Below, piece after piece: positions 38,401 through 41,400 of a DNA stretch of 64,000 bases; positions within the stretch are counted from its first letter, which is position 1, and every line of letters begins with the position of its first letter. Source of the stretch: Escherichia coli (lineage in GTDB: Bacteria; Pseudomonadota; Gammaproteobacteria; Enterobacterales; Enterobacteriaceae). The stretch lies in NCBI RefSeq assembly GCF_044324785.1, contig NZ_CP172127.1; one strand, 5' to 3'. The position numbers were made by a program.

Positions 38401-41400
38401 GCACGTTATTTGATGAATGTAACGTGCTTTTTATTAAAAATATTTTAATAAACGGTAATGTTGATCATATTTTCAAATGAAAATCCTCAGTAAGCTGCCC
38501 GCCCTTTTTTACACTTTCAGGAGTGTGTTATGGCAGCTTCAACCTTTTTTATTCCTTCCGTGAATGTTATTGGTGCTGATTCATTGAATGATGCAATGAA
38601 TATGATGGCAGATTATGGATTTACCCGTACCTTAATTGTCACTGACAATATGTTAACGAAATTAGGTATGGCGGGTGATGTGCAAAAAGCACTGGAAGAA
38701 CGCAATATTTTTAGCGTTATTTATGATGGCACCCAACCTAACCCAACCACGGAAAACGTCGCCGCAGGTTTGAAATTACTTAAAGAAAATAATTGCGATA
38801 GCGTGATCTCCTTAGGCGGTGGTTCTCCGCACGACTGCGCAAAAGGTATTGCGCTGGTGGCAGCCAATGGCGGCGATATTCGCGATTACGAAGGCGTTGA
38901 TCGCTCTGCAAAACCGCAGCTGCCGATGATCGCCATCAATACCACGGCGGGTACGGCCTCTGAAATGACCCGTTTCTGCATCATCACTGACGAAGCGCGT
39001 CACATCAAAATGGCGATTGTGGATAAACATGTAACTCCGCTGCTTTCTGTCAATGACTCCTCTCTGATGGTCGGTATGCCGAAGTCACTGACCGCCGCAA
39101 CGGGTATGGATGCCTTAACGCACGCTATCGAAGCGTATGTTTCTATTGCCGCCACGCCGATCACTGACGCTTGTGCATTGAAAGCCGTGACCATGATTGC
39201 CGAAAACCTGCCGTTAGCCGTTGAAAATGGCAGCAATGCTAAAGCGCGTGAAGCAATGGCTTATGCCCAGTTCCTCGCTGGCATGGCATTCAACAACGCT
39301 TCTCTGGGTTATGTTCATGCGATGGCGCACCAGCTGGGCGGTTTCTACAATCTGCCGCACGGTGTATGTAACGCCGTTCTGCTGCCGCATGTTCAGGTAT
39401 TCAACAGCAAAGTCGCCGATGCGCGTCTGCGTGACTGTGCTGCTGCTATGGGCGTGAACGTGACAGGCAAAAATGACGCGGAAGGCGCAGAAGCGTGCAT
39501 CAATGCCATCCGTGAACTGGCGAAGAAAGTGAATATCCCGGCAGGCCTGCGTGACCTGAACGTGAAAGAAGAAGATATTCCAGTGCTGGCAACCAATGCC
39601 CTGAAAGATGCCTGCGGCTTTACTAACCCGCTCCAGGCAACTCACGAAGAAATTGTGGCGATTTATCGCGCCGCAATGTAATCATCATTCCCACAACGGC
39701 TGGCGAGTTGTCAGCCGCTTTTTCAACTATCTCAAAACTTGCTTTTTTTGAGATAGTTTCTCTTTCCTGCTATACACTATCTCAATATTGCGCTTTTTTG
39801 AGATAAGCACATGGCTATCAAATCACCTCCCGGACTTATTCCTTTATCACACTTATCGGGTGAGGAACTCCTGGCCCACCTGCGCTTTAACCGGGTTACC
39901 GATGAAAAAGGACGTTATCTGCCTTTTGATGAGTTGCAGTACCGCATCAAAAAAGGAGAAAACGTCGAAGTGGCGTGGACGCTTACCCGTCTGGCGCGCA
40001 ACGCGGCGATCCAACGAATCAATTATTGCAATGAAGCGGGTGAACAGGCCGGATTCAACATTACCCCGGTGATTGCAGAAGCGTGCGAGCTTGTCGACAA
40101 ACGTGCTACCGCGCTGGCGCTGAAAGATCAGACTGAACGGTTACGCGGGGCCGGAGCCGAGTTAAGTCAGTTACGCCTGGAAGAGCCAATCACCAGCTCC
40201 CAACTGGAAGGTGCGAATACCACAACGCTGGTGGCGAGAAAAATGCTGGAAACAGGGCGGTCGCCACGCACTGAAGACGAGCATATGATTGCGGGAAATG
40301 CCCGGCTGATGGCGGAAATTCCGCACTTACTCGCAGAGCCGCTAACACCTGCGCTTATTCGCCAGTTACATGCCATTGGTATGGGTGGAATCAATGACGC
40401 GAAATATCGTCCGGGAGAATTTCGTGAAACAGATGATGTTGTGATCGCCGACTATGACGGCAATATTGTGCACCAACCGCCCGCTGCGGCATTGTTGCCG
40501 GAACGGCTGGAAAAAGTTTGCCAGTGGCTAAACAGCCATGAAGGGTATATTCATCCGTTGGTCCGTGCCTGCATTCTGCATTTTATGCTGGCCCATGAAC
40601 ATCCGTTTCGGGATGGCAACGGGCGCACCAGTCGGGCGCTGTTTTACTGGTATATGCTGAAATCGGGCTACGATGTTTTTAAATATATTTCTATCAGCCG
40701 TTTGCTTCATGCTGCGCCAGTCAAATATGCTGCCAGCTACCAGTACACTGAATCAGACGGTATGGATCTGACTTATTTCCTTGATTATCAGGCGGGTGTC
40801 ATTAAACGCGCTCTGCATAACTGGCAGCAGCATATTGATGAAATTACACAACGAAGCGCAAAACTCGATAGTGTGCTGTTTAGCTCTGGTGTGCTTAAAC
40901 GCCTGAATCCGCGCCAGGTAACGCTCCTGAATGTGATGCTCGCTAATCTGGGGAAAGAGTACACAGTTGCTGAAATTAGCACGGGCCTGGGCGTCTCTGA
41001 TAATACGGCTCGAGCAGATTTACGGACGATTGTTAAAGAAGGATTTGCGCAAGAGAAGAAAATTAATGACCAGCAAGCAGTGTACGTCGCGCATTATCCG
41101 TTGTAACCCTTGCCCGTAAATTCGTGATTGCCGTCGAAAAGCTGTCACTGACTGGCGAAGATTTCGCCAGTCACGTCTACCCTTGTTATACCTCACACCG
41201 CAAGGAGACGATCATGACCAACAATCCCCCTTCAGCACGTGTTCAGCCCGGCGAGTATGGTTTTCCTCTTAAGTTAAAAGCCCGCTACGACAACTTTATC
41301 GGCGGCGAGTGGGTAGCCCCTGCCGACGGCGAGTATTACCAGAACCTGACGCCGGTGACCGGGCAGCTGCTGTGCGAAGTGGCGTCTTCGGGCAAACGAG

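Follow-up and report, generated by a model that had tools for sequence, protein, structure and literature searches.

Two palindromes upstream of fic

The window analysed here is a stretch of 64,000 nucleotides (64 kb) from Escherichia coli (contig NZ_CP172127.1, assembly GCF_044324785.1), in which fic lies between yiaY and aldB. Two palindromes, P1 and P2, are found between the yiaY stop codon (39681) and the fic ATG (39811), together with the following features:

39697..39717, + strand: intrinsic terminator of yiaY, a 9-bp stem with 6 G-C pairs, then CTTTTT (terminator scan)
39725..39758, no strand: P1, the distal candidate operator, AACTATCTCAAAA-cttgcttt-TTTTGAGATAGTT (sequence read and repeat finder)
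39748..39753, + strand: predicted -35, TTGAGA, which is the start of the P1 right half-site (relaxed promoter scan)
39768..39776, + strand: predicted extended -10, TGcTATACA, with the hexamer at 39771-39776 (relaxed promoter scan)
39776..39807, no strand: P2, the proximal candidate operator, ACTATCTCAAta-ttgcgctt-TtTTGAGATAag (sequence read and repeat finder)
39800..39803, + strand: likely Shine-Dalgarno sequence GAGA, inside the P2 right half-site and 7 nt before the ATG (sequence read)

The yiaY terminator forms the upstream border of the fic cassette and is kept in K-12, which is without fic.

Both palindromes are real and non-random. Two matches to the pattern TATCTCAA-N6-14-TTGAGATA were found in the 64-kb window and none in 100 dinucleotide-preserving shuffles, and searching the window with up to three mismatches gave no site beyond P1 and P2. 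The arms of P1 are 13 bp long and 100% complementary across a gap of 8 nt, and its half-site cores are CTATCTCAA at 39727-39735 and TTGAGATAG at 39748-39756. In P2 the perfect cores CTATCTCAA (39777-39785) and TTGAGATA (39798-39805) give the core pattern CTATCTCAA-N12-TTGAGATA. Written as ACTATCTCAA-...-TTGAGATA, P2 has perfect arms of 8 bp and a gap of 12 nt; taken instead as 12-bp arms around a gap of 8 nt, it pairs at 9/12 positions. P1 and P2 are 30-nt direct repeats of 80% identity, with a start-to-start distance of 50 bp. An earlier note on this DNA had described two palindromes upstream of fic, and sequence reading and the repeat finder each recovered both; the coordinates also agree with the 50-bp spacing that it gave and with its placement of the pair after the yiaY terminator and ahead of the fic ATG. 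A small correction concerns P2, which does not abut the start codon but ends 5 nt short of the ATG, and whose perfect arms are 8 bp long.

The fic product is a predicted Fic enzyme with a winged helix

The coding region contains the following features:

39811..41106, + strand: fic ORF, 431 aa, with a Fic domain and, C-terminally, a winged helix-turn-helix (wHTH) (ORF list)
40195-40212, + strand: inhibitory motif SSQLEG, residues 129-134, class II, N-terminal to the Fic motif
40600-40635, + strand: catalytic motif HPFRDGNGRTSR, residues 264-275, fitting HxFx(D/E)GNGRxxR
40909-41091, + strand: wHTH, residues 367-427 (AlphaFold model)
40999-41037, + strand: predicted recognition helix SDNTARADLRTIV, residues 397-409 (AlphaFold model)

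Judged from its motifs and the structural model, the fic product belongs to the class II Fic enzymes and carries a winged helix at its C terminus. The Fic domain was matched by Pfam (E 1.7e-19), with weak DeoR and IclR HTH matches at residues 376-414. Catalytic residues H264, F266, D268, G269, N270, G271, R272 and R275 are invariant in an alignment of 40 relatives, as are S129, E133 and G134 of the class II (S/T)xxxE(G/N) helix. A PDB sequence search with the C-terminal 145 residues returned no significant match, and structure prediction and a fold search were therefore used instead. The AlphaFold model (pLDDT 89.4) has helices at 367-378, 386-393 and 397-409, then strands at 413-417 and 423-427. 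The top Foldseek matches, over ~355 aligned columns, were CbFic2 (8cil), Dde_2494 (4rgl), SoFic (3zcn/3eqx) and CccR (7xux); identity to the characterised Fic-wHTH proteins is only 16-21% in these alignments. Defence-system models label the product SoFic-like: the PADLOC SoFic model matched residues 96-427 (E 1.3e-41). The NCBIfam SoFic equivalog model scored 39.7 bits against a cut-off of 550, and the product is best described as a SoFic-like relative rather than an equivalog. A literature search by guessed locus tags found no study of, or transcription-start data for, E. coli fic.

The palindromes overlap the predicted fic promoter and ribosome-binding site

The inverted repeats overlap the predicted -35/-10 region of fic, an arrangement conserved in relatives. 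TTGAGA and TATACA stand 17 nt apart in a sigma-70-like configuration according to the relaxed promoter scan, and the CTCAA core of P2 begins 4 nt after the end of the predicted -10. The strict scan of the window reported no sigma-70 site, because it requires a T at position 6 of the -10, where the window has TATACA. This lack of the usual T at position 6 is a point against autorepression. The same -35/-10 geometry was seen in relatives L005, L006 and L010. Across the 33 distinct loci with a C[TG]CAA core (window included), the -10 hexamer of the best sigma-70-like match ends 2-4 nt 5' of the core in 21. By the usual 7-nt rule, transcription is predicted to start at ~39782-39785, inside the P2 left half-site. 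The right half-site of relatives reads TTGAGGTGA or TTGAGTTGA and stands at an equal distance from the start codon.

Co-inheritance of the palindromes with fic

To judge from their distribution, P1 and P2 are part of a one-gene fic cassette and not of yiaY or aldB. Approximately 29% of complete E. coli genomes carry fic, O157:H7 and ST131 strains included, and in fic-less E. coli the palindromes are absent too, deletion scars excepted. K-12-type E. coli, without fic, retain only the remnant CAACTATCTC joined to TGTAA, and an intermediate E. coli allele has kept a decaying P1. Both deletion junctions lie exactly at a TATCTC half-site, and the scars still contain the fic stop codon, a sign of deletion and not of insertion.

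In seven other genera, orthologues of 62-76% identity share these half-sites, placed 2-6 nt ahead of the ATG, and they have no flanking gene in common with one another or with the window. A P2-equivalent site at this distance is present in orthologues from nine genera. P1 was found in the Escherichia, Salmonella and Leclercia lineages and is absent in the Photorhabdus, Pantoea, Erwinia and Buttiauxella orthologues. Among six fic-carrying loci, the left core of P1 is invariant at 10/11 positions, the right core at 7/11 and the gap at 0/8, while the P2 cores are invariant at 9/9 and 8/8 positions and the inner 12 nt at 0/12. Mean pairwise identity is 86-100% in the half-site cores and 33-55% in the gaps and linker; still farther upstream it is 21%.

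A BLAST search with the 89-nt region matched a single place in each E. coli genome, with a median of 1 and a maximum of 2; as this search misses isolated 30-nt sites, a genome-wide regulon may exist. A dispersed REP- or MITE-like repeat family was rejected on this single place per genome in the 89-nt BLAST search and on the lack of extra window copies at 3 mismatches; the earlier note had said that a widespread repeat family would speak against operators, and P1 and P2 are not of that kind. IHF- and CRP-type sites were rejected by eye, as the half-sites fit neither consensus.

Upstream palindromes occur across the family

A significant palindrome just upstream of the gene, scoring above the 95th percentile of shuffles, was found in 72% of 78 relatives (31-76% identity, several phyla) versus 5% and 1% of control windows. 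In the Bacteroidota relatives the distance of the palindromes upstream of the start is 30-140 nt. The half-site sequence shifts by lineage along with positions 3-4 of the predicted recognition helix: CTCAA-type sites pair with [SA][DEQA][NG][TS]AR helices, GCGAGAT-type sites with S[NSD][FY]TAR helices (10/10) and TTAGTAWT-type sites with [TV]Y[QE]T[AS]R helices (5/5), a covariation that is confounded by the common ancestry of the relatives.

The exact pattern CTATCTCAA-N12-TTGAGATA was also searched for in metagenomes and viral contigs, and a fic homologue lies downstream in 38 of the 125 loci found. The other 87 matches are without fic and mostly fall inside long ORFs, one ORF of a gut organism accounting for ~20 of them; the few intergenic fic-less matches have no common downstream gene. 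From this sequence context, we treat the fic-less matches as probable chance matches or scars.

P1 and P2 as candidate autoregulatory operators

We consider it probable that P1 and P2 are operators by which the adjacent Fic-wHTH protein represses its own promoter. Support comes from the sequence anatomy, the co-inheritance with fic alone, the family-wide conservation of upstream palindromes, the covariation of half-site class with the recognition helix, and the protein fold. The earlier note had suggested operators for a dimeric regulator, possibly read by the wHTH of Fic itself, and every computational test run on sequence and model supports this: half-sites are invariant where gaps and linkers diverge, and the sites overlap the predicted -35, the -10/+1 region and the ribosome-binding site. 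Precedent is provided by CccR and SoFic, which bind their own promoters (PMC9755527; bioRxiv 10.64898/2026.07.09.737422).

Under this proposal, a Fic dimer would place its two C-terminal winged helices on the two half-sites of one palindrome, each half-site being CTATCTCAA and the half centres lying 21 bp apart, or two helical turns. We infer the binding itself, its stoichiometry, the exact transcription start and repression as the direction of control. P2 would be the ancestral site, running from just past the -10 over the predicted start to the ribosome-binding site, and a dimer bound there would block RNA polymerase. P1 would be a second site, acquired in the Escherichia/Salmonella/Leclercia lineage; as its right half-site is the -35 hexamer, occupancy of P1 would add a second block, and P1 may bind cooperatively with P2, 50 bp away. 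Such negative feedback would hold a potentially toxic AMP-transferase low and steady. There is a slim chance, suggested by analogy with CbFic2, whose enzyme activity is switched by DNA binding, that binding to P1 and P2 also holds the Fic dimer harmless. If so, titration or displacement of the dimer, for instance by incoming phage DNA or through loss of the locus, would both de-repress the gene and free active toxin, making fic a switch for abortive infection that consists of one protein tethered to DNA.

Dyad symmetry over a promoter does not reveal which protein reads the sites, and P1 and P2 might be operators not of Fic but of a regulator whose gene lies at another place in the genome. CbFic2 uses its wHTH to bind DNA with no evident sequence specificity (PMC10628234), so that possession of a Fic wHTH is no guarantee of operator recognition. 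We nevertheless regard a separate regulator as unlikely, as the sites belong to a single-gene cassette whose half-sites are kept across nine genera without common neighbours. Such a regulator would need to be present unchanged in all those hosts and to vary across phyla in parallel with the recognition helix of Fic, and no other copy of the site was found in the window, nor elsewhere in E. coli genomes by BLAST of the 89-nt region.

The palindromes could instead act as RNA hairpins, P1 as a back-up terminator or insulator after yiaY and P2 as a hairpin in the 5'-UTR that masks the ribosome-binding site and restricts translation of the toxin. If transcribed, the two would fold well, with -13.5 kcal/mol (z -6.4) for P1 and -7.3 kcal/mol (z -3.6) for P2; P1 is terminator-like according to the terminator scan, and the likely Shine-Dalgarno sequence is in the 3' arm of P2. 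However, the conserved -10 sits 2-4 nt before the core, so that the predicted transcript begins inside the P2 left arm and an RNA hairpin is unlikely to form; RNA starting at 39783 showed no significant structure (z +0.7). For both palindromes the two strands fold equally well. Arm mismatches comprise 13 G:T and 9 A:C, thus without a sense-strand wobble bias, counts too small to decide the matter. In the clade from Escherichia to Erwinia, conservation extends to the sequence of the arms and not just to their pairing, and the Bacteroidota palindromes, at their distance upstream, fall in promoter territory. An Rfam search of 39500-40000 gave no match at E <= 1. The fallback of the earlier note, weak tandem hairpins, is thus disfavoured, and we rate a role as RNA hairpins as very unlikely. 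As for P1 by itself, a Rho-independent terminator was rejected: only 3/13 pairs of its stem are G-C, it is followed by TCTCTTTCCT, and the T-rich tract downstream is not conserved, being missing in L005, L006 and L010. A proper terminator of yiaY already lies at 39697-39717.

That P1 and P2 are leftovers of mobility, as terminal repeats or recombination sites of an element that imported fic and with no regulatory role, is hardly credible: patchy fic carriage and precise deletion junctions at the half-site would fit, but both palindromes lie on one side of fic with none at its 3' end, no target-site duplication, transposase or integrase is present, the scars point to deletion, and many lineages keep the sites in a fixed register to the ATG, -35 and -10, which is unexpected for element ends.

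Discussion

In autoregulated type II toxin-antitoxin operons, the toxin is kept low by negative feedback via palindromic operators that overlap the operon's own promoter. In phd-doc, the toxin Doc has a Fic-like fold and the DNA-binding module is a separate antitoxin protein. Unlike such operons, the window fic fuses the inhibitory helix and the DNA-binding domain to the toxin and has no partner gene.

CccR of Yersinia pseudotuberculosis (YPK_0951, PDB 7XUX) is an autorepressor acting via palindromes near the -35 and -10, as demonstrated by DNase footprint, EMSA, a lacZ fusion and palindrome mutants, which were de-repressed (PMC9755527). CccR acts as a dimer and belongs to the class II Fic AMP-transferases that have an HTH domain at the C terminus, as the window Fic is predicted to do, and the folds match over ~361 columns (Foldseek E 8e-11), although phmmer matched CccR in the Fic domain only (E 1.3e-11). 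CccR differs in its length of 380 aa, without the ~95-residue N-terminal extension of the window Fic, and it adjoins a T6SS effector locus and is secreted, whereas fic in the window has yiaY and aldB as neighbours. Given these neighbours and an identity of 17%, the window Fic is not a CccR orthologue; by analogy, we propose that it works like CccR without orthology. The CccR operator is a single wide-gapped pair, AGATAATCAT-N26-ATGATAATCT, and the window has two palindromes of CTATCTCAA-N12-TTGAGATAG. This dissimilarity of the operators, in geometry (CccR has boxes of 10 bp and a gap of 26 bp) as well as in sequence, is a further point against autorepression, as are the low identity of the window Fic to the characterised Fic-wHTH proteins and the negative PDB sequence search with its C-terminal residues.

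The dimer of SoFic from Shewanella oneidensis (SO_4266) binds specifically to the first 100 bp ahead of the start codon of its own gene (bioRxiv 10.64898/2026.07.09.737422). SoFic (PDB 3EQX/3ZCN), with the anti-phage defence family of that name, resembles the window Fic in joining Fic and wHTH domains, with a fold TM of 0.58-0.68 at 16-18% identity; its operator sequence is not defined. In E. coli, the gene for EcSofic is followed by that of a small antitoxin, AS1 (PMC12249575), and the ORF list contains no AS1-like small ORF in the 104 nt between fic and aldB. The best structural match to the window Fic is CbFic2 of Coxiella burnetii (PDB 8CIL; Foldseek E 1.2e-12), also a Fic-wHTH protein, which binds random DNA, and binding switches the enzyme between AMPylation and deAMPylation (PMC10628234). 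Its target is host histone H3, and it is not known to have an operator or to regulate itself.

Self-repression has already been shown for two distant relatives, and the fic gene of the window is most likely a solid, unsurprising further example; nothing known is overturned by the proposed fic operators. The gene is uncharacterised yet widespread among E. coli, and knowledge of its candidate operators offers an experimental handle through de-repressing half-site mutations, reporter use and the specificity of the wHTH. The comparative result broadens the single-protein findings on CccR and SoFic into a rule across several phyla, in which most relatives have an upstream palindrome, its sequence tracks two helix positions, and it keeps a fixed register to the -10, +1 and RBS. 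For hundreds of Fic-wHTH proteins this rule could serve to predict the operators, and perhaps also pairs of repressor and operator that are orthogonal. There is likewise a slim chance that the lineage-specific pairs of half-site and helix residue add up to a recognition code that could be read across a large, unstudied family of one-polypeptide toxin-repressors.

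Two palindromes precede the fic start codon

The earlier note had described two palindromes upstream of the fic ATG, and these were borne out by the sequence itself, by a repeat finder and by the pattern TATCTCAA-N6-14-TTGAGATA, which occurred twice in the window and in none of 100 shuffles. The distal (P1) and proximal (P2) palindromes are 30-nt direct repeats with 80% identity, 50 bp apart from start to start. No third site was found in the window with up to three mismatches permitted.

Features of the yiaY-fic interval (window positions, strand as presented)
39681: yiaY stop codon
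39697-39717: G+C-rich terminator hairpin of yiaY
39725-39758: P1, AACTATCTCAAAA-cttgcttt-TTTTGAGATAGTT, perfect 13-bp arms
39748-39753: predicted -35, TTGAGA, in the right arm of P1
39768-39776: predicted extended -10, TGcTATACA; 17 nt separate its hexamer TATACA from the predicted -35
39776-39807: P2, perfect core CTATCTCAA-N12-TTGAGATA
39811: fic ATG (431-aa ORF)

The repeat finder also listed an imperfect 17-nt inverted repeat (I1; 39911-39966, 82% complementary, 22-nt gap) within the 5' fic coding sequence. Conservation was then compared across six fic-carrying loci with twin palindromes.

Invariant positions in the six loci
P1 left core: 10/11
P1 gap: 0/8
P1 right core: 7/11
Linker between P1 and P2: 3/20
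P2 left core: 9/9
P2 inner 12 nt: 0/12
P2 right core: 8/8

The palindromes travel with fic

Orthologues of fic with 62-76% identity were found in Escherichia sp. ESNIH1, Salmonella diarizonae, Photorhabdus, Mangrovibacter, Pantoea, Leclercia, Erwinia and Buttiauxella, and in almost all of them CTATCTCAA...TTGAGATAG ends 2-6 nt before the ATG. Neither yiaY nor aldB lies within 3 kb of these orthologues, and no two of the seven loci whose flanks were compared have a flanking ORF in common. Since the orthologues share half-sites but no flanking ORF, the palindromes belong to fic; judged from these genomes, their sole companion is the Fic gene, not its neighbours. Twin palindromes 49-50 bp apart also occur in other lineages, to as low as 56% identity. 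The metagenomic relatives (compared contigs L148, 7498-7587, L087, L152 and others) show this spacing too, except for a single locus with 61 bp, where the additional 11 bp amount to roughly one helical turn and would keep the twin sites on one helix face.

An exact scan of metagenome and viral contigs for CTATCTCAA-N12-TTGAGATA returned 125 loci, with a fic homologue (43-100% identical) beginning at most 120 nt downstream in 38. Long ORFs enclose most of the matches without fic, and the few between genes have no downstream gene in common; such matches are expected by chance, given the collection size. A large share comes from one 648-aa ORF of a common human-gut organism, whose coding sequence includes an exact copy of the 29-nt pattern (L086, L112, L115, L127, L129 and about 15 more loci) and illustrates how readily exact-pattern scans of very large collections catch coding coincidences. 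Another exact match with an A/T-rich gap (contig L134, 12315-12343) lies 41 nt 5' of an ORF that resembles FosA (glyoxalase fold) and sits at the end of its contig, with no fic visible; it may reflect chance, a scar or contig-end truncation.

Half-sites are lineage-specific and sort with the recognition helix

For 78 relatives from a species-genome collection (31-76% identity; Proteobacteria, Campylobacterota, Bacteroidota, Nitrospirota, Actinomycetota, Spirochaetota and an archaeal MAG), we took the score of the strongest palindrome within 150 nt upstream of the start codon. It exceeded the 95th percentile of dinucleotide shuffles in 72% of them, versus 5% and 1% for control windows 600 nt upstream and inside the gene, respectively. 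The half-site sequence itself is lineage-specific.

Half-site classes among fic relatives
TATCTCAA: Escherichia-to-Erwinia group
CACCTCAA: Siccibacter and allies
CAACTCAA: Pseudomonas, Alloalcanivorax
AACTCAAAAT: Campylobacterota
TTGCGAGAT: Bacteroidota and a Planktophila genome
TTCTTGCAA-type: Prevotella-like genomes
TTAGTATTTA: Nitrospirota, Woesearchaeota

Half-site class goes along with the residues at positions 3-4 of the predicted recognition helix, an association inflated by common descent: CTCAA sites pair with [DEQA][NG], GCGAGAT sites with [NSD][FY] (10/10) and TTAGTAWT sites with Y[QE] (5/5). The half-sites would appear to be under selection, as non-coding DNA would not otherwise be recognisable at 30-40% protein identity. 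Many of the relatives that are more distant share an operator of consistent asymmetry (ACGCAA left, TTGAGT right), located some 20-35 nt 5' of the fic start at loci L020-L025, L033 and L035 from other genomes, and ATCGCAA is also used in P1 of Leclercia and ESNIH1. Either T or G is thus tolerated at position 2 of the CTCAA core.

Predicted promoter elements overlap the palindromes

A C[TG]CAA core is present at 33 distinct loci, including the window; at 21 of them the -10 hexamer of the best sigma-70-like match ends 2-4 nt before this core. Transcription should start at about 39782-39785, within the left half-site of P2, and the Shine-Dalgarno sequence likely lies within its right half-site (GAGA in the window, GAGGTGA in Siccibacter). 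This geometry also makes it unlikely that the palindromes act as RNA hairpins, because RNA from the predicted start could not form the P2 hairpin (z +0.7). P1 would lie outside the fic transcript, although it could still be transcribed through yiaY read-through. Further points against a hairpin role are that the T-tract past P1 is not conserved, folding is equal on both strands, arm mismatches lack a sense-strand wobble bias and Rfam gave no match.

Fic resembles known DNA-binding Fic proteins, among them the autorepressor CccR

The fic product matches the Pfam Fic domain (E 1.7e-19) and, weakly, DeoR/IclR-type HTH families (residues 376-414). Its catalytic motif, HPFRDGNGRTSR, together with the N-terminal inhibitory motif SSQLEG, makes it a class II Fic enzyme. 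In an AlphaFold model built with 40 relatives (mean pLDDT 89), its C-terminal end is a winged helix-turn-helix, with three helices followed by a beta-hairpin. The top Foldseek hits in the PDB were Coxiella CbFic2 (8cil), Dde_2494 (4rgl), Shewanella SoFic (3zcn, 3eqx) and Yersinia CccR (7xux), each aligned over about 355 columns at 16-21% identity. The PADLOC SoFic model matched with E 1.3e-41; the score against the NCBIfam SoFic equivalog was far under the cut-off. The first ~95 residues (39811-40095), modelled with helices at 17-22, 39-45 and 52-66 and strands at 68-73 and 79-82, are an extension of this Fic subfamily with no counterpart in the structures above, those of SoFic, CccR and CbFic2 included. 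Y36, W56 and R63 are unchanged across the 40 relatives.

CccR of Y. pseudotuberculosis, a Fic-HTH toxin, represses its own promoter through AGATAATCAT-N26-ATGATAATCT near the -35 and -10 boxes, a site defined by DNase footprinting, EMSA, ITC, lacZ fusions and palindrome mutants; dimerisation is also necessary (PMC9755527). Specific binding to the 100 bp that immediately precede its own gene has been shown for SoFic as a dimer, not as a monomer (bioRxiv 10.64898/2026.07.09.737422). The HTH of CbFic2 shows no evident preference for sequence in its DNA binding, which switches the activity of the protein (PMC10628234). By analogy, the window system would work like CccR without being its orthologue: the proteins share 17% identity, and the window Fic has the additional N-terminal stretch. 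The operators also differ, with another half-site, a far smaller gap (21 bp from half-site centre to half-site centre, versus 36) and two palindromes rather than one. The 21-bp spacing corresponds to about 71 Å, an inferred near match to the 70 Å reported between recognition helices of the CccR dimer.

Three alleles of the yiaY-aldB interval in E. coli

The comparison covered 5,426 complete E. coli genomes; the full fic cassette, with both palindromes, is present in about 1,575. Over the 89-nt palindrome region the top-listed records match the window at 100% identity and 1,238 records reach at least 99%; over a wider 1.8-kb region, identity is at most 97%. In K-12 and most other strains the interval reads CAACTATCTC|TGTAACCC (junction also written CAACTATCTC|TGTAA), retaining just the outer part of the P1 left arm and the fic stop codon. 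In an intermediate 'orphan P1' allele, carried by about 500 genomes, the right arm of P1 has decayed (TTGAGAGAG) and is followed by TATCTC|TGTAA. The junctions map to 39724-39733 and 41102-41106 in the window, and to 763-780 in L001 and about 1500-1560 in L084/L085, loci from the comparison set. Since both scar types retain the fic stop codon and three allelic states exist, the alleles fit a stepwise loss in which fic would have been deleted first, with a later collapse between two TATCTC repeats. E. albertii has the complete cassette adjoining aldB.

The aldB ATG lies only 104 nt past the fic stop (41104-41215). Its upstream region is near-identical in K-12 and begins right at the fic end, so the aldB control signals abut the fic cassette. 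No small ORF like the AS1 antitoxin, reported downstream of EcSofic, was found in 41104-41215.

Predicted autoregulation by Fic

A literature search turned up no work on this E. coli fic gene. Autoregulation through the winged helix of Fic itself, as suggested in the earlier note, has good support from comparative evidence and precedent, and P1 and P2 would be the operators for it. What seems to be new is an operator rule that holds across the family, the covariation between helix and half-site, the building of the predicted -35, +1 and ribosome-binding site into half-sites and the decay of the E. coli cassette in steps.
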